A stretch of DNA of 64,000 nucleotides, taken from Candidatus Micrarchaeota archaeon (lineage in GTDB: Archaea; Micrarchaeota; Micrarchaeia; Anstonellales; Bilamarchaeaceae). Both the position numbers and the translations under genes were made by a program. Of this stretch, positions 12,575 through 55,314 are shown piece after piece. The notes below the pieces were generated by a model. The model saw only the letters and a program-made list of their open reading frames with translations. It was not told the DNA's origin and did not search any database. Each line of letters opens with the position of its first letter. Within the stretch, counting starts at the first letter, position 1. The stretch covers positions 32,308-96,307 of the forward strand of contig JAGVWJ010000008.1 of the NCBI GenBank assembly GCA_018304385.1, written 5' to 3'.

Positions 12575-12690
12575 AACTGTGTTTTCTTCTATCTTCTCCT
12601 TATTATAAAGACGTCGTACTACTTATGTTTGCTATAGGGACGTGGTCTTATACATTCTTCATGCCACGTCGGCTGTTCTAGGTTTTCTTC
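12573..12690. repeat. Dispersed ~100-bp hairpin element, copy 1
   Basis: Aligns with 34918..35010 (same strand) and 54865..54980 (opposite strand); stem GACGTGG/CCACGTC. Confidence 0.8.
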
Positions 12691-24500: not shown

Positions 24501-25844
24501 TTACTCTACACTCCAATTATATCTTTCTTCAGCTCTTGAAACCTTATCTCTTTCAATATAAGTTCTTGCCTTTTCTGAAAAGGTATTTGGATAAGTATCT
24601 TTTTGATACTCGATTTTTAATTTGGCGCGGGACCCTGATTCATCTATGTTAAATATTCCATAATATACGCTATCATGAGTAGTAATTACTATCTTATTGT
24701 TTTTATAATCAGCTTCCCAATCACCAGAAAGTATGACTGATCCGCTATCCTCTACCCCAACAACGCGCTGTTTTTTGTAATATTTTGTATTATTGGTGAA
24801 AAATACAAGCACATCAGGAGTTTCGTCAATTACCCATTGCTCTGACTTTAGATACCATTCACCAATAAGCTCTCCTTTATGGCCTTTATGAAACAAAATT
24901 GGATTAGTAAGATACGGTTCCCATGGCGTTGGCACGACTCCGGATACATCTTTGCCCTTTGAAAGTATTGGATCTACTTCTTTTAGATATTTTTCAACGA
25001 ACTGTTTTTTCTCATTCTCTTGTAAATAATCAAATGGAGAAACTAGTGTTGCTCCCTTTATGAATTTATACCAATGAACAACACCATCTCGCCTATGCTG
25101 ATCTGCAACATTAAATTCAGCAAACTGATATCCTGGCGCATGTGCAAATTTTTCACCATAACCAACTGGATCACCTGCCTTTACCTTATCACCAGGTTTT
25201 ACGAGAGATCTTTGAACATGCATATGCTCGCCCCAAAGCCCATCTCCATAATAAATAATTATATTGGGAGTATCAACTGAGCCCCCTTCTAGATCATTGA
25301 CGTAAACAACTACACCATCAGCCCAACTACGAATAGGAATATTATCTTTAATGGATATCCATTCATGATCTAATCCTTCAGCATGGCCTCCTGGATGCGC
25401 CCCATATGCGCCAATCTGAGCGTATAGTATATCCTCTAACTTGGCAGGTAATATAAGTCGTACAGAAGAAGCGCCTTCTGGCAATGGTTGTGTTACAGCA
25501 TCAGTAACCCATTCTTTAGGCTTTGCAGCCTCTGGCACTTCACATAATTCATGTGATAGGTTTTTATTACAAAAATCATTGCATCTTCCTACATTGCTCT
25601 TGCAAAAAACAAAACAATCTTGCAGTGATGAACAAAAACCCATTCCTTTTGTTTGTGTTAGATCCTCTTCTACAGGTTCAGCTTTTTGTTCTTTTTCTAT
25701 TTTTATCTCTGGTTTAGTTTCAGTTTTATTTTCCTTTGTAGATGTTTCAATTTTTGTTTCCTCTTTCTTCACTAATGTTTTATTTGTATCAGAGACATTT
25801 ACAGTTTTCTCCGTAACATTTTCTTGTTGAACACATCCGCTCAA
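24501..25844 (-). CDS. M23-family-like metallopeptidase, lipoprotein-like, signal peptide missing
   Basis: HAEGLD (HxxxD) and HMH motifs; VKPGDKVKAGDPVG; starts at LSGC. Confidence 0.7.
   Translation of the reverse strand: MSGCVQQENVTEKTVNVSDTNKTLVKKEETKIETSTKENKTETKPEIKIEKEQKAEPVEEDLTQTKGMGFCSSLQDCFVFCKSNVGRCNDFCNKNLSHELCEVPEAAKPKEWVTDAVTQPLPEGASSVRLILPAKLEDILYAQIGAYGAHPGGHAEGLDHEWISIKDNIPIRSWADGVVVYVNDLEGGSVDTPNIIIYYGDGLWGEHMHVQRSLVKPGDKVKAGDPVGYGEKFAHAPGYQFAEFNVADQHRRDGVVHWYKFIKGATLVSPFDYLQENEKKQFVEKYLKEVDPILSKGKDVSGVVPTPWEPYLTNPILFHKGHKGELIGEWYLKSEQWVIDETPDVLVFFTNNTKYYKKQRVVGVEDSGSVILSGDWEADYKNNKIVITTHDSVYYGIFNIDESGSRAKLKIEYQKDTYPNTFSEKARTYIERDKVSRAEERYNWSVE
25745..25843. repeat. 99-bp exact direct repeat, copy 1
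   Basis: Identical to 26800..26898; encodes SGCVQQENVTEKTVNVSDTNKTLVKKEETKIE. Confidence 0.95.
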
Positions 25845-25936: not shown

Positions 25937-26898
25937 TTATCTTTCAGTTATATTATGTAGTAAACATCCTGGAGCAACCCAAGCTTCTTGTTTGTAAACG
26001 TCTTTACCAATAAACTCTTCCCAATCATTTGCTAATCTATTTATTTTTTCTTTATACATTGGTTTTAATGAGTTGTCTAAAAATTCAAATGGGCAATACT
26101 TAATAATATTTTGACCCCCAGTCCATACATTAATCTCAACATTTCCAAATTCTATTTTTCCGTAAGAAGGGGATACTTCAGCTAGTTCTTGGCCCACTAG
26201 GACCTTGTCTCCGGGTTTTATACGCACATTATAAACATGCTCAAATCCAACGATCCAAGGAGAGGATTCATGAGTTTTTATAGAAATAAGATAGTCTTGT
26301 GACGGCTCGAAAAAATTCACATCTGTAATAACTCCCTCAATCGGGGATATAACTTTAGTGCCTACAGGAACATTAAACCCTATTTCTGGAAGCAGCTTGT
26401 CACCCATCTCATTAATTACTCTATGAGCAAACTCAGTAAAAATTTTATCGTCAACATAGTTCTTGTTTTCAAATAAAAAATCTCCCGCCATATTTGTTTT
26501 TCTGTCCCAAGGTTCTATTTTGATGCCTAAATTTTTTAGGACGGGCTCCATTTCTTGTAGTTTCTCTGTTTGTTCCGTTTCTTCTTGAGGTAGAAAAATT
26601 ATTTTGCATAGCTCATTCTTACTTCCTTTACAATATGATTCACAACGTCCGCGATTACTCAGGCAAAAATTTTTACATTCTCCTTCTCCTGTACATAAAT
26701 CACCAAGTTTAGGAATCTGGGATGCATTTGAAAGGATTGTTTTATTATATTTTTCCAAAGAATTGTTGAGAGTTGTTTCTGCAGGTAATATGGACTCGTT
26801 TTCAATTTTTGTTTCCTCTTTCTTCACTAATGTTTTATTTGTATCAGAGACATTTACAGTTTTCTCCGTAACATTTTCTTGTTGAACACATCCGCTCA
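25937..26898 (-). CDS. M23-like protein, paralog of 24501..25844; no credible signal peptide or start
   Basis: VISPIEGVI, GFEHV..VRIKPGDKV..GQ, YCPF; upstream ATG 26935 lies inside the divergent gene. Confidence 0.6.
26800..26898. repeat. 99-bp exact direct repeat, copy 2
   Basis: Identical to 25745..25843. Confidence 0.95.
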
Positions 26899-27707: not shown

Positions 27708-28139
27708 GGGCCCGTAGCTCAGCCAGCCTTGAATTGCAAATTCAAGATTTGCAGGCAAGGCCTGCAATGGACAGATCGGCAGCCTTCTATGCCCAGCCTT
27801 TTTAGAATCTTGAGTATTTCTCATGGAAAAAAGGCTAGGCTTAACCCAAAAACTAGGATTACTTGTTTTGGGGCTCGACCTTTTCGACATTAAAATATAG
27901 AAGTGTTGAAAAGGGCGAAAGAGGATAGCTGTAGGACATGGGTTCAAAGCCATATCCCCTTTCTTAGGAAGAAAGGGGCTGAGTCATTCACCCCCAAAGA
28001 AGCGGTGATTGTCTGAGTTATACCTAAAATTGCCGACGCATGCTTTGCATGCGTCTAAAGCGCATTTATAAGAAAAATCTTAGGATAGCGCGGCTATTTC
28101 GCATAGGTATAACAATGGACGAAATTCCCATCGGGCCCG
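27708..28139 (+). tRNA. tRNA-Arg(UCU) with three introns (D-loop ~27726-27768; 37/38 27790-27926; 59/60 27949-28125)
   Basis: GGGCCCG/CGGGCCC acceptor; GCAGC-CT-TCT-A..A-GCTGT anticodon arm; ATGGG-TTCAAA|T-CCCAT T arm; CUUC/GAGG BHB central helix at 37/38; one D-stem mismatch. Confidence 0.85.
27949..28125 (+). ncRNA. 177-nt structured tRNA T-loop intron, copy 1
   Basis: Homologous to 55037..55213 with compensatory changes; relaxed BHB at 59/60. Confidence 0.8.
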
Positions 28140-28219
28140 TATTTTATTTTCCTATTTTAGCATGCTTTAAATTCCTTTTCTATTTAAAACATCTATTATA
28201 TAATCACTTATTCTAATTT

Positions 28220-34917: not shown

Positions 34918-35010
34918 CTTCTAATTTCTCATTCTCATGAATACGTCGTACTACCGATATTCTCTATAGTGACGCAGTCTTATGTTCTCTTAGGCTGCGT
35001 CGGTCGTTTA
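34918..35010. repeat. Dispersed ~100-bp hairpin element, copy 2
   Basis: acgtcgtactac..ctatagtgacgcagtct..gctgcgtcgg. Confidence 0.8.
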
Positions 35011-35037
35011 ATGTATTCCTTAGGTTATGAAATATCC

Positions 35038-47455: not shown

Positions 47456-47836
47456 ATGCTCACAAAGAAGCAAATAATACAAGAACACGACAAACTTATC
47501 GAATTATTTGGTGGAACTTTAGGCATGCACTATGACGGCAAGATAGAAAGAACTATAGAAAGATATAACGAAAGTAAGAATAAAAAAGAAGCATGCATTG
47601 AATTTTACTATGAAATAATAGTAGGGCATCCTTTTGTTGATGGAAATAAACGAACAGCCACACATTTTCTTGAACATTTACTAGAATTGAATGGTTATAG
47701 ACTAAATGCTACCAATGAGCAAATCGTAAAAATGGCGCTCGACATTGCAAGAAAAAACGAAGAAATGGAAAAGAAAAAAAGAACACCCGTATCGCTTGAT
47801 TACGTTAAAGACTACACAGCTAAATTTATCATTTAA
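47456..47836 (+). CDS. Fic/Doc-family toxin
   Basis: HPFVDGNKRTA Doc-type motif. Confidence 0.92.
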   Translation: MLTKKQIIQEHDKLIELFGGTLGMHYDGKIERTIERYNESKNKKEACIEFYYEIIVGHPFVDGNKRTATHFLEHLLELNGYRLNATNEQIVKMALDIARKNEEMEKKKRTPVSLDYVKDYTAKFII

Positions 47837-50345
47837 ACTGCTTCTTCATCTTAGCAATTAGTTTTTTCTTTTGAGCAGATTCCTTCAATGCGAATTGTAA
47901 AACATCTAAAATATTACTTACTGGAATTATTTTTATTTTCTTCTTCCGCTCAGCGCTTAAATAAACATCCTCAACATTTGTTTTTGGAATTAAAACTATT
48001 TGCAATCCAGAATCAATTGCTGCTTCGATCTTTGCACTAACTCCGCCAATAGGTAAAACCCCTCCTCGTATATCCAGCGAGCCAGTCATTCCTACCTGCT
48101 GATTAATTGGTATATCCGCTAAAGCACTTATTACTCCTATAGCAATGCTTATGCTAGCGCTATCGCCTTCAACACCTTCATAAGTTCCGATAAACTGAAT
48201 ATGGATATCCATCTGCGCTATATCCGTACCAATGTGTTTTTTCACAATTGCAGAAACGTTTTCAACAGCTTCCTTTGCGATTGCCCCAAGCTTGCCAGTT
48301 GCAATTACCTTTCCTTCTGATTTACTGGCAGCAGGTGTAACCTCTGCAACAATAGGCAATACAAGCCCGGCCATTGACTCCCCTAGAACAGCCAAACCAT
48401 TAACCCTGCCATTTGCATAGCCTTCAGTTACTATTGTCTGGTATTCTTTTTTCTGCTCAATTATTTTTTTACCAAGCTGACTTTCTATTGGGTTAAATAT
48501 CTTTCTTGCTTGTAACACATGCTCGCGTTCAACGTATTTCGCCTTTTGCTCGCGCGCAATATCACCAGCAGCGCGCACTAGTCCACCAATTTCTCTTAGA
48601 TTAAGTGTAAAGCGCTTGCGCCTTGAAGATAATCTTCGTGCTTCTTCAATAATTTCAAGCACTGCATCGCGCGAAAAATGCGAGATCTTTCCATCTTTTT
48701 TAACCTCTTGCGCAACGAACTGCACGATTCTGTTTTCATTTTCTTCGCTATCTTCCATTGAATCTTCTACATAAACTTCATAGCCTGCGCCTCGTATGCG
48801 CGAGCGCAATGCTGGATGAATCTGCTGCATATCTGGAAGATTGCCTGCTGCAACTAGTACGAAATCAGTTGGTGCTGGCTCTGTTTTTACTAGTGCACCA
48901 CTGCTCATTTCGCTTTGACCAGTAATTGAATATCTTTTTTCTTGCATTGCTGTTAGCAATTCTTGTTGCCAATGCCATTTCAGCGATGCAATTTCATCTA
49001 TGAATAGAACACCTTTATTTGCTTTGTGCACTGCGCCACTTTCGACACGAAGATGCGGAGGGGTACCAAGGCCGCCAGAATTACTTACTAAAATACCGTT
49101 TGCAAATATGTTTCCTGATTCGGTTGTTATGTTATAAACAAAACCTAATGCATTGATTTCTGAAATTTCATTTATACGAACAGTGCGCGAACCTCTAGAT
49201 AAGAATAACTGATTAGAACCCCCATCATGCGAAACATAATTAATATTCGTAACTATATTTTCGTTGCCTTTCAATTTACTAATTTCAACATACTTTTCAT
49301 TAGTATAAATTTTGTGTTCTGGGGTAACCAAAAGCGAGCCACCACTGTATTTCAATACTTTTAATTTTCCATTATGAGGTCTTCTATTAACTGCGATTAT
49401 TAGAACTTTTCGAATTTTTCCATTCTTGTATCCAAATGTATAAGCCTTTTCCTCTTCTGGCAATAATAAACCTTCATAACTCTCTTCATTTTTTTCTATT
49501 AATCCCGGGTATTTCGCAATCATTTTGTCTACAAATTCATTCATCAAAATATTTTGCAAATTTCCATTTTTTAGTATGTTTATTTCTGTGTTAAAAAATG
49601 ATTGTAACGGATCATGTTTACAATCACCAAGTAATGCGCCCGCTTTTGCACCTGTACCGTCGATGAACGGTGCAGTTTTCTTTTCAGTATTATCTACTAT
49701 TAGTTTTGGGTAACTCTGCTCAAATGGACCAAGCCTTCTGCTTAAGCCCGCAGTTGCATTTGAAATAATAAAAAGAAACGCAAGGATACCTAGCGTAGTT
49801 ATTACCATCCATTTCAAGTTCTCTGGTATATCTATTAGAAAAATTAAAGCAAGCATTGTTATTGCTAATATCATTAAGATAAATGTAGAAGATATCCCCT
49901 TTGGCATCTCATCCATGTTTTTTCTATAATTAGTTATTCTTCTTCCCAAACCTAGCTTTAGCGCCTCTGGTAAAAGCTCAACTTTTTTTTGTTCAGTGTG
50001 TTTTTTTATTACAGCTAACTCCTGTGGCATGTAAAGTCTTGCATAATCAGGATTTTTCTTTAGATAATCGTAAGTGGGATAGGTCTTAACTGTTTTTATT
50101 ATTGGTTGGTTCTCATTATTTGAATTTGGCAAAACCAAAACATCTTCTAGCTCTTCAGTAGGCATAAGCTCTGCCATTGCTTGCGCAAGCATGCTTTTTC
50201 CTGTGCCTGGCGGTCCAATAAGTAAGACATTACGCTTTTGCACAGCTGCCTTTTTTATTATATTAACGCCTTTATCCTGACCAATGATTTGGTCAATTAG
50301 CTTTTCAGGAACTGTGATTTCTTCTGTAGTTTTAAATTGTTTCAT
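47829..50345 (-). CDS. lonB: Archaeal LonB protease (membrane-bound), intein-containing
   Basis: GPPGTGKS, two TM helices, LFIDEI, EGDSAS, GGV.AK Ser-Lys dyad. Confidence 0.96.
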   Translation of the reverse strand: MKQFKTTEEITVPEKLIDQIIGQDKGVNIIKKAAVQKRNVLLIGPPGTGKSMLAQAMAELMPTEELEDVLVLPNSNNENQPIIKTVKTYPTYDYLKKNPDYARLYMPQELAVIKKHTEQKKVELLPEALKLGLGRRITNYRKNMDEMPKGISSTFILMILAITMLALIFLIDIPENLKWMVITTLGILAFLFIISNATAGLSRRLGPFEQSYPKLIVDNTEKKTAPFIDGTGAKAGALLGDCKHDPLQSFFNTEINILKNGNLQNILMNEFVDKMIAKYPGLIEKNEESYEGLLLPEEEKAYTFGYKNGKIRKVLIIAVNRRPHNGKLKVLKYSGGSLLVTPEHKIYTNEKYVEISKLKGNENIVTNINYVSHDGGSNQLFLSRGSRTVRINEISEINALGFVYNITTESGNIFANGILVSNSGGLGTPPHLRVESGAVHKANKGVLFIDEIASLKWHWQQELLTAMQEKRYSITGQSEMSSGALVKTEPAPTDFVLVAAGNLPDMQQIHPALRSRIRGAGYEVYVEDSMEDSEENENRIVQFVAQEVKKDGKISHFSRDAVLEIIEEARRLSSRRKRFTLNLREIGGLVRAAGDIAREQKAKYVEREHVLQARKIFNPIESQLGKKIIEQKKEYQTIVTEGYANGRVNGLAVLGESMAGLVLPIVAEVTPAASKSEGKVIATGKLGAIAKEAVENVSAIVKKHIGTDIAQMDIHIQFIGTYEGVEGDSASISIAIGVISALADIPINQQVGMTGSLDIRGGVLPIGGVSAKIEAAIDSGLQIVLIPKTNVEDVYLSAERKKKIKIIPVSNILDVLQFALKESAQKKKLIAKMKKQFK
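49080..49601 (-). mobile_element. Mini-intein (174 aa) in LonB
   Basis: Interrupts HDPLQ|SGGLGTP; starts SFF, TPEH block B, VYNIT..N.FANGILVSN blocks F/G; no endonuclease motifs. Confidence 0.9.
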
Positions 50346-51611: not shown

Positions 51612-52181
51612 ATGTTTATGCCTAATGAAGAAAATAAAACTATCCGTTGCTTTTTAGCAGTTGAAATACCTAATGAATTAAAGGATAAGATCGCCAGCTT
51701 GGCTAAGGAGCTAGATATTAAAGGAATAAAATTAGTTGAACCAGAAAACATACATGTAACCCTAAAGTTTTTGGGTGATGTTAAAGAGGATAAGATAAAC
51801 AATATTAAGGAAAGACTACGAACAGTGAACTTCTCAAATTTTAATATCAAACTGCATGGTGTTGGTGTATTCCCAAATGAAAATTATATTAAAGTAGTTT
51901 GGGTTGGCTGCGAAAGCAAAGAGCTTTACATATTGGCAAAAAAGATAAATGAAGCGCTAGCAAGCGAATTCAAAAGAGAGGAATTTACTGCGCACGCGAC
52001 TATTGCGCGTGTTAAACAAAAGGTTGAACTTCATGACTTTTTAGAGAAACATAAAAACGATAGCTTTGGAGAGTTTGTTTGCACTAACTTTGTATTAAAA
52101 CAAAGCGAGCTTAGCAGAGAAGGACCTAAATATACTACTTTAGCAAGTTTTCAGTTCTCAGTTTTGGGTCATGAGTTTTGA
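51612..52181 (+). CDS. thpR: RNA 2',3'-cyclic phosphodiesterase (2H family)
   Basis: HVTLKF and HATIAR motifs. Confidence 0.93.
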   Translation: MFMPNEENKTIRCFLAVEIPNELKDKIASLAKELDIKGIKLVEPENIHVTLKFLGDVKEDKINNIKERLRTVNFSNFNIKLHGVGVFPNENYIKVVWVGCESKELYILAKKINEALASEFKREEFTAHATIARVKQKVELHDFLEKHKNDSFGEFVCTNFVLKQSELSREGPKYTTLASFQFSVLGHEF

Positions 52182-52222
52182 GTTTCGCGTCTCGAGTATG
52201 GAAACTCAAAACGATCAGCGGA

Positions 52223-53029
52223 TCAGAGACTGACTAATGCCACCCCAAACTTGTTGAACGTCAGGCGACCTGCATCGACGCCACACCCGTCGCCGTCGAC
52301 GTAGACGCCACGAACCAGAGGAAGTATATAAGCGTCTTCTATTCTCTGTAAATACCTAGTATCTTTTGATTGTCCTACTGCTTTGCCTTGTGGGATTCCT
52401 GTTTTAGTGTGTGGGACATACCAACCATATTTTCTAATTGGAAAATTTTTTATTAGATGAACATTTGCACCATCTAATACTCTAATTTCATATCTTTTAT
52501 CTCCTAAATCTATTACTTCAAAATCAGGATGTTCTACAACTAATGCACAATTTGTTCTTCCTAAGAATCGTAGAGGAGTATTGAAGGTTACTGAAAGACG
52601 ATCTCTAATAAACCAAATTTCATCAGTACATATTACTTGTTCTCCAAATGGAATGCCTGGCGCTTCATAAATAATTAAAGTTCCTGTCCATACTGGATAA
52701 TTTTTTGTTAAATATTCATAATCAGTGGTTATAATTCTATCATGAACAATGTTTGGAACTACCATTTTTCCTTCTTTTTGAGCTAATGCTAATGCCTCAA
52801 CAAAATTTAATTTTCTATGAAATTCTATTACCTGTTTCACTACTTCCGGATTCGCTTCTCTTAACATTTGCCTTGTTCTTCTTGCTTGTTCTAAATATGA
52901 CTGGCCTGCAACATCTGGCTTTCTTACTTCATGAGGTTCTTCTTTTTTGTATCTGCCAAATACATTGTTTGCGCTGGCTGAAACTACATGTGGAGTAATT
53001 CTATTACCTGCACAGACTAATCTTACCAT
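52223..53029 (-). CDS. Hypothetical protein with DGR-like variable C-terminus (candidate DGR target)
   Basis: GC-rich NNC codon run at the 3' end; LVRG...FGVA frame. Confidence 0.65.
   Translation of the reverse strand: MVRLVCAGNRITPHVVSASANNVFGRYKKEEPHEVRKPDVAGQSYLEQARRTRQMLREANPEVVKQVIEFHRKLNFVEALALAQKEGKMVVPNIVHDRIITTDYEYLTKNYPVWTGTLIIYEAPGIPFGEQVICTDEIWFIRDRLSVTFNTPLRFLGRTNCALVVEHPDFEVIDLGDKRYEIRVLDGANVHLIKNFPIRKYGWYVPHTKTGIPQGKAVGQSKDTRYLQRIEDAYILPLVRGVYVDGDGCGVDAGRLTFNKFGVALVSL
52238..52318 (-). other. Candidate DGR variable region
   Basis: cgt ggc gtc tac gtc gac ggc gac ggg tgt ggc gtc gat gca; downstream hairpin at 52177-52212. Confidence 0.6.
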
Positions 53030-53176
53030 AAGGCTTATCTTGCCAGAAACTGTTTAAAAACCTATCTTTCCCATATATTAACACATAATAATCAGAGCCA
53101 GAGAAGATTTAAATACCCTTATTCACAAAGACAGTATATCAATTTTATGTTTATTTTTAACTGTTGAGGTTTAACT

Positions 53177-54761: not shown

Positions 54762-54864
54762 AGCATTAGTATAAAACGAAAGTTATAAAAAGCGTTATTA
54801 AGGGTAACTTAGAAAATAGAATAGTTTAAATTTATATGTAAGCATTTATTCTTATCTTACCTAT

Positions 54865-54980
54865 AGAAAATATAGGACGGCCGACGCAGCAAAAGGCTTT
54901 ATTAGACTGCGTCACTATAGAAAATATCAGTAAAACGACGGCTTTATAATAAAGAGAAAATAGAAGAAAACATAGCTTGG
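54865..54980. repeat. Dispersed ~100-bp hairpin element, copy 3 (includes the tRNA-Ala promoter)
   Basis: Reverse complement aligns with 12573..12690 and 34918..35010; CTTTATAA at ~54942. Confidence 0.8.
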
Positions 54981-55227
54981 GCCTGTAGCTCAGTAGCAGA
55001 GCACCCGCCTTGCACGCGGGGGGCCGAGGGTGCGAGGCCATAGCCCCTTTCTTTAGAAAAGAAAGGGGCTGAGTCATTCACCCCCAAAGAAATGGGTGAA
55101 ACTTGGTTATACTGAACTGCCGATGAATGCGTAGCATTCATCCACAAGCGCATCTCTAAGAAATATCTTAGGATAGCGCGGCTGTTTCGCATAAGTATAA
55201 CAATGGACGAAAATCCCTCCGGGTCCA
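54979..55227 (+). tRNA. tRNA-Ala(UGC) with 177-nt intron at 59/60
   Basis: GGGCCTG/CGGGTCC acceptor with G3:U70 and A73; CCCGC-CT-TGC-AC-GCGGG; GAGGG-TGCGAG|T-CCCTC. Confidence 0.88.
55037..55213 (+). ncRNA. 177-nt structured tRNA T-loop intron, copy 2
   Basis: Homologous to 27949..28125. Confidence 0.8.
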
Positions 55228-55314
55228 TTTTTCTTTTTCTTGTCTTCAGTCTTGGGTTTTGAGTTCTGGTGATACTTTATAAATATTAATAGATAAAAAG
55301 AACTTAGGATCTGC

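Follow-up and report, generated by a model that had tools for sequence, protein, structure and literature searches.

The gene on the minus strand at 52223-53029 of the window raises the question of whether its short GC-rich 3' end is the variable repeat (VR) of a diversity-generating retroelement (DGR) and, if it is, from where that repeat would be rewritten. By the window we mean the whole stretch of DNA that was analysed, which is 64,000 nucleotides long (G000:C20:32308-96307) and belongs to an assembly of 1.53 Mb in 65 contigs that is 89% complete. A preliminary description made from the window had read the gene as a DGR target that is diversified in trans by a template (TR) and a reverse transcriptase (RT) located elsewhere in the genome. 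The open reading frame of 268 amino acids is as that description gave it, and the coordinates of the features discussed here are collected in Table 1.

The switch from AT-rich to GC-rich sequence that had been pointed out in the last ~27 codons is borne out both by GC content in windows and by codon counts. The GC fraction of 100-nt windows is 0.55-0.56 over 52200-52349 and 0.27-0.35 deeper in the gene, and the VR core at 52250-52306, which comprises the 19 codons between LVRG and FGVA, has 63% GC and 17.5% A, while the first 237 codons have 33% GC and 39% A. Codons ending in C make up 11 of the 19 in the core as against 18 of those 237 (Fisher p = 2.4e-7), and the gene does contain the run of codons that had been quoted (gtc tac gtc gac ggc gac ... 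ggc gtc). Windows of 57 nt that are equally GC-rich amount to 0.23% of the 64 kb, the others being a tRNA and Pro/Thr-rich linkers. The middle of the core retains the family scaffold (R/G)(R/C)xVxA, and the LVRG codons before it are the counterpart of the (V/A)RG codons at which the homology between TR and VR begins in related cassettes. On the other side of the core, the motif GGGGTGGC at 52239-52246 codes for the start of the final beta strand (GVALVSL), and the protein terminates five codons past this motif.

Table 1. Position, strand and basis of assignment of the features of the candidate target gene and its 3' flank (window coordinates).
Feature	Position	Strand	Basis
Gene for the predicted AvpA-like C-type-lectin-fold variable protein, 268 aa	52223..53029	-	ORF, homologues, AF2, VIA-align
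LVRG codons, putative constant 5' edge of the variable repeat	52307..52318	-	
Putative VR core, 19 codons	52250..52306	-	Composition and alignment to L047 TR
GGGGTGGC, VR-side end motif (IMH-like)	52239..52246	-	Relatives' VR ends
Last five codons and TGA stop	52223..52238	-	
AT-rich hairpin between convergent genes, 12 bp, 14-nt loop	52175..52212	.	
Copy of a short dispersed repeat, AAAACT(C/G)A-like period	52146..52186	-	
Single-gene block, gene and both flanks, approximate extent	52148..53103	.	G115 comparison

A compositional boundary as abrupt as this one might also be produced if the 3' end of the gene were foreign, whether through a chimeric fusion, the end of a mobile element or an assembly artefact, and the gene does lie within a block of about 955 bp which one congener lacks. 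When the tail is compared with 58 homologues, however, it aligns in frame to their C-termini, the conserved positions R, V and GVAL among them; it makes up the last strands of a confident structural model; and the identical sequence is found on 11 contigs. A foreign origin of the 3' end is hardly credible in view of these observations.

The end motif connects the gene to the DGR cassettes of its relatives. Among the 14 close relatives' cassettes whose ends were compared, 12 have a VR which ends in GGGGTGGC and a TR which has G(A/G)AATGAC at the same place; in the remaining two, one VR ends in GGGGTGCT and one TR is masked. The genome under study contains 15 copies of GGGGTGGC, and the copy at 52239-52246 is the only one preceded by 75 nt that are GC-rich (0.61) and poor in A (0.13). 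The occurrence of GGGGTGGC after a GC-rich, A-poor tail, as opposed to the G(A/G)AATGAC of a TR, provides a compact mark for remote targets whose TR is unassembled. The VR core can in addition be fitted to a relative's template: the 36 nt at its start, aligned with the TR of the metagenome locus L047, agree with it at 26 positions and differ at 10, 9 of which are TR adenines, and the score of this alignment is 24.5, compared to a maximum of 17.5 in 60 codon shuffles.

Of the 176 genomes of the order that were searched, 41 (the present genome included) contain homologues of the RT described below, and metagenomes contribute a further 80 RT loci, of which the best match is 61% identical when the organism's own records are excluded. 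Beside the RT homologues, 63 repeat pairs were found in which at least 80% of the mismatches fall at the adenines of one copy, and RT homologues at 52-67% identity adjoin adenine-biased TR/VR pairs of this kind. In one relative (G126, locus L035) the gene that immediately precedes TR and RT codes for a protein homologous to the window protein (30% identity, E 2e-17), all 20 of the 20 mismatches between its VR and the TR are at TR adenines, and the TR also matches a second VR on another contig. In another (G044) the TR matches a VR on a different contig, with mismatches at 17 A, 2 T and 1 C. Since in both of these genomes a VR is located on a contig other than that of its TR, remote targets are real in this clade. 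The preliminary description had looked to relatives for a TR and an RT, and what they hold are TR/VR pairs with adenine-only mismatches together with homologous RTs and targets; the TR start that it had predicted, cgtggc(aac)n, agrees with relatives' TRs in that these open with cgcggc, followed by aac or tac codons.

The targets in such cassettes (for example G126 L035 and G106 L026) are homologous to the window protein at 30-36% identity, and their VRs likewise start with (V/A)RG, end in GGGGTGGC and carry the scaffold (R)(R)xVx(A/L). They differ from it in that they are positioned directly upstream of TR and RT and possess a C-terminal extension, whereas the window gene is remote and short-tailed. 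The VR of the cassette target in G106 (G106:C9, L026:3168-3269) is represented by a block of about 100 N between (A)RG and GGGGTGGC, which is either withheld sequence or a gap in the assembly at a hypervariable site.

If no DGR were involved, then the 3' end would have to be the fast-evolving C-terminus of an ordinary paralog, shaped by mutation, selection or gene conversion, and its GC-rich, NNC-like appearance would be coincidental. The facts that the 13 paralogs in this genome vary in the length and sequence of the VR without a common scaffold at the DNA level, and that a TR was not found in the assembly, are in keeping with such an account. It does not explain, however, why the TR/VR mismatches in the cassettes of homologous genes are restricted to adenines, why the exact VR-side end motif is present, why the VR fits a relative's TR beyond any of 60 shuffles, or why the composition shifts so sharply (p = 2e-7), and it is very improbable.

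The fold of the protein was approached through a predicted model. A Pfam scan of the 268-aa sequence found no family, and a database search returned 89 homologues, the few named ones among which are hypothetical proteins of Candidatus Micrarchaeota. An AlphaFold2 model built from an alignment of 58 homologues has a pLDDT of 87.4 and a pTM of 0.80. In a wide VIA-align search over 48,161 chains, the top match to this model is AvpA, the DGR variable protein of Nanoarchaeota whose crystal structure is known (5ioo_B; Z 8.6, rmsd 3.7 Å, 156 residues aligned), and it is followed by about 50 C-type lectin domains at Z 6.1-7.8; TaqVP (5vf4), a Thermus DGR variable protein, is matched at Z 6.5. Weak OB/HIN-like rows in a Foldseek comparison with the PDB (TM below 0.3) were superseded by the VIA-align search. 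The C-type lectin fold that the preliminary description had put forward as a check is thus the fold of the predicted model. Because model residues 62-267 superpose on residues 2-210 of the AvpA chain, the C-terminal VR sits at the position of the VR in AvpA, where the non-variable end motif after the VR encodes the last strand (Handa 2016, PMC5006420). On the strength of the model, the window protein is probably a C-type-lectin-fold binding protein of the kind that DGRs rewrite, and its last 27 codons are likely to form the binding surface and the final strand.

The resemblance to AvpA is one of structure and arrangement. Both proteins have a single-domain C-type lectin fold with inserts, both come from a DPANN archaeal host, and in both the C-terminal end of the fold carries a short VR of about 20-27 residues. 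Their sequence similarity, on the other hand, is undetectable by a profile against the PDB: searches of PDB sequences for AvpA (5ioo) with the single sequence and with a 58-sequence profile returned only noise, and the target of the G126 cassette also had no match to 5ioo in such a search. The window protein has an additional N-terminal region of about 60 aa, and it is without the tail of roughly 45-60 aa that follows the VR in AvpA and in relatives' cassette targets, the tail of AvpA being about 46 residues long with a hairpin in its DNA. Mtd of Bordetella phage BPP-1 and TvpA of Treponema denticola similarly display a C-terminal VR on a C-type lectin fold, but they belong to another fold subclass (FGE-type), their VR is about twice as long, and neither is among the top 50 structural matches given by VIA-align. 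They share the AAY-to-NNY logic and a VR end motif that confers directionality (summarised in PMC5006420).

The DGR RT that had been proposed to exist elsewhere in the genome was found at G000:C2:18340-19364 (RVT_1, 50 bits), with LGNLTSQ and YVDD motifs, and it is accompanied by an Avd homologue at G000:C22:1820-2128 (PF05635, 66 bits), which has unrelated neighbours and is unlinked to the RT. By eye, this Avd closely resembles an ORF downstream of the RT in G106 that was itself read as Avd without a Pfam scan. An identical RT is present in the database as protein P0092, with contigs of up to 27 kb. The near-copy of the VR that had likewise been predicted as the TR was not found in the 89%-complete assembly, and neither was a TR for any other VR, whether by BLAST of the VR, by ungapped scans with and without free adenine mismatches, by a BLAST of the whole genome against itself for adenine- or thymine-biased repeat pairs, by a scan for in-frame AAY-rich windows, or by a scan for the TR-end motif with an AAC-rich stretch upstream. 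Contig C2, however, breaks off within the RT gene, so that about the first 26 codons are missing, and relatives have the end of the TR 40-60 nt upstream of the start of the RT. Because the TR of relatives adjoins the start of the RT in this way, the TR is expected just past the end of contig C2, and its absence from the assembly is uninformative; by this analogy it is probably just unassembled. Since the gene's own TR is missing from the assembly, that the gene is diversified in trans is something we infer.

The reading of the gene as a DGR target is supported by the fold, by homology to proven DGR targets, by the composition of the VR, by the end motif and by the presence of RT and Avd, and the VR is very probably of DGR origin. 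The gene itself is probably a remote target, in which case reverse transcription of the TR would rewrite 52239-52318 in trans. In such a scheme the TR, by analogy with relatives, would lie directly upstream of the RT, some 120-300 nt past the point at which contig C2 stops. Its RNA copy would be reverse-transcribed by the RT on C2, aided by the Avd on C22, and errors would be made at template adenines; the resulting cDNA would then replace 52239-52318, with priming at the GGGGTGGC end, so that AAY codons of the template would become NNY codons of the VR. The target would be acted on at a distance, in its place between housekeeping genes.

If the VR is accepted as DGR-derived, then it must further be asked whether it is still being rewritten, or whether the gene is a retired target, once written by a DGR and now evolving as an ordinary paralog. 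The VR is identical in all three versions of the protein in the database (11 contigs, which may not be independent samples), one of which differs elsewhere; in addition, the canonical GC hairpin is absent, the RT is out of frame, the assembly has no TR, and most sister paralogs are visibly decayed. To set against this, GGGGTGGC is intact at 8 of 8 positions and the VR, in a gene of 33% GC, is still 63% GC and A-poor, so that the VR shows little decay; the 3' halves of paralogs in G044 that are also short-tailed and hairpin-less still match the current TR; and the TR is expected past the end of the contig, where its absence says nothing. That the target has been retired is, on balance, possible but rather unlikely. 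Whether rewriting in trans takes place at present is close to an even question, leaning towards no, the intact end motif and undecayed VR pointing one way and the identity of the VR across versions, the frame of the RT and the lack of a GC hairpin the other.

The hairpin requires separate comment. A GC hairpin or cruciform downstream of the end motif occurs in BPP-1 as well, but not in all DGRs. In this clade, each of the 12 cassette VRs that bear GGGGTGGC is followed, 8-12 nt past the motif, by a GC stem of 6 bp closed by a 3-nt loop. No such 6-bp GC hairpin follows GGGGTGGC in the window, and it is likewise missing from the G044 short-tailed paralogs mentioned above. The hairpin noted in the preliminary description does exist (arms 52201-52212 and 52175-52186, DNA fold z = -2.5), but it is a 12-bp AT-rich structure that starts 27 nt past GGGGTGGC, and its 3' arm reaches across the stop of LigT, the convergent gene, into a repeat that is dispersed in the genome. 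It was rejected as a DGR cruciform because its size, composition and distance are wrong and because it is partly dispersed repeat. The repeat, which is AAAACT(C/G)A-like with a period of 7-8 nt, is also found in intergenic positions at C23:12373, C23:44563, C58:9979, C63:9594 and C19:10324 and elsewhere on C20, and similar sequence occurs 3' of the paralogs on C15 and C40.

The frame of the RT is broken by a -1 change at a run of nine G (G9) at about 19,000 of contig C2. RTs of this clade have a simple-sequence tract at one fixed spot, before GYxLKADIxHYF, which consists of G9-G22, C8-C10 or (GA)n. Among the 29 closest RT loci (L025-L053), 21 are split over two frames and 4 are in one, the remaining 4 being truncated at a contig end; the RTs of L061 and L107 are also split, shifts of both +1 and -1 occur, and RTs at 57% identity or less are mostly in one frame. 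Since the tract is found at the same spot throughout the clade and usually leaves the gene out of frame, in either direction, it is read as a slippery gate that may act on the RT rather than as the sign of a dead gene. In locus numbering the tract of the present RT is at L025:2187-2289.

The protein belongs to a family that is both multicopy and unevenly distributed. The genome has 13 full or near-full paralogs, all of which have a (L/V)(V/A)R(G/D/C) start, a hypervariable stretch and a (G)VAL-type end. Automatic delimitation of the VR failed or was mis-anchored for 4-5 of 12 paralogs, and in the comparison of the remaining copies, supplemented by reading by eye, the window copy stands out by having the most GC-rich VR and an end motif that is intact at 8 of 8 positions, while the other delimited copies retain 4-7 of 8 and look decayed. 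The degenerate end motifs of the other 12 paralogs show that decay of such genes does occur in this genome. The family is represented in 56 of 176 genomes of the order. Of two genomes of the same genus, G115 (1.3 Mb, 75% complete) has about 75 BLAST hits and G116 has none, and most of the copies fetched from G115 and G044 carry the GGGGTGGC end motif and the same scaffold. The family loci in G115 are L126-L155 and L161-L162. In G115, at its 75% completeness, neither an RT of this clade nor a TR-like pattern was found, and a search of G115 and G044 for recent paralog duplicates with diverged VRs found none close enough to inform.

The place of the gene can also be compared with G115. In that genome the LigT gene and the gene for ribosomal protein S10 are adjacent (L159, G115:C157:3440-3700), and the segment 52148-53103 therefore represents the gain or loss of a single gene, about 955 bp in extent. 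The LigT reading frame of the present genome continues into the inserted sequence. It may tentatively be suggested, although we consider it doubtful, that one DGR serves dispersed single-gene lectin cassettes of ~1 kb which are gained and lost between housekeeping genes, with its RT gated by the slippery repeat. If this were true, then the genus would have binding proteins in a repertoire that spans the genome and can be switched, and not just one hypervariable locus.

Two further observations concern the family as a whole. The paralog on C7 (G000:C7:25965-26148) has a hairpin-rich insert after the VR that is read through in frame, giving the peptide PEERSS...GQTDRDRRS, and the same insert is found at two other positions in the homologues P0044, P0046, P0048 and P0058, which come from other genomes (columns about 190-240 and 330-390 of alignment A2); it looks like a small mobile palindromic element. 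The N-terminal ~40 residues of the family (FGRYK.E..H.VR.PDV) match the starts of other ORFs of 265-397 aa (C29:50766, C14:302, C60:5467, C3:881, C37:89 and C8:13576), which may be distant members or may share an N-terminal module.

The archaeon that carries this gene is a tiny symbiotic member of the Micrarchaeota. For DPANN archaea, DGRs, C-type-lectin variable proteins and remote targets have been described before (Handa 2016, and reportedly Paul 2015 and 2017). The present analysis provides a reading at the level of function for a large family which Pfam does not model and whose members are annotated as Micrarchaeota "hypothetical proteins", and the variation in copy number from 0 to about 75 within one genus bears on the diversity of surface or ligand recognition in host-dependent archaea with small genomes. 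The protein is a new and unannotated member of a kind of system that is already known, as DGRs in DPANN archaea, their AvpA-like lectin-fold targets and remote targets have all been published (PMC5006420, PMC6349945, PMC8144416).

Several other features of the window deserve mention. In the archaeal LonB protease encoded at 47829-50345 (minus strand), ...HDPLQ and SGGLGTP are separated by an insert of about 155 aa, which begins with S, ends with SN before S, and splits the Pfam AAA module into residues 18-70 and 410-516. Set against other LonB sequences, the insertion site is presumably as given here, and the insert is possibly a mini-intein. The gene for tRNA-Ala(TGC) at 54977-55073 (plus strand) probably contains an intron, since it was called at 97 nt. 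The 80-108 nt upstream of it (54859-54975) have inverted copies at 12577-12659 and 34918-35025 (75-81%), and 100 nt downstream (55146-55246) are repeated at 28058-28158 (84%). A perfect direct repeat of 99 nt is found at 25745-25843 and 26800-26898, with a spacing of 1055 nt.
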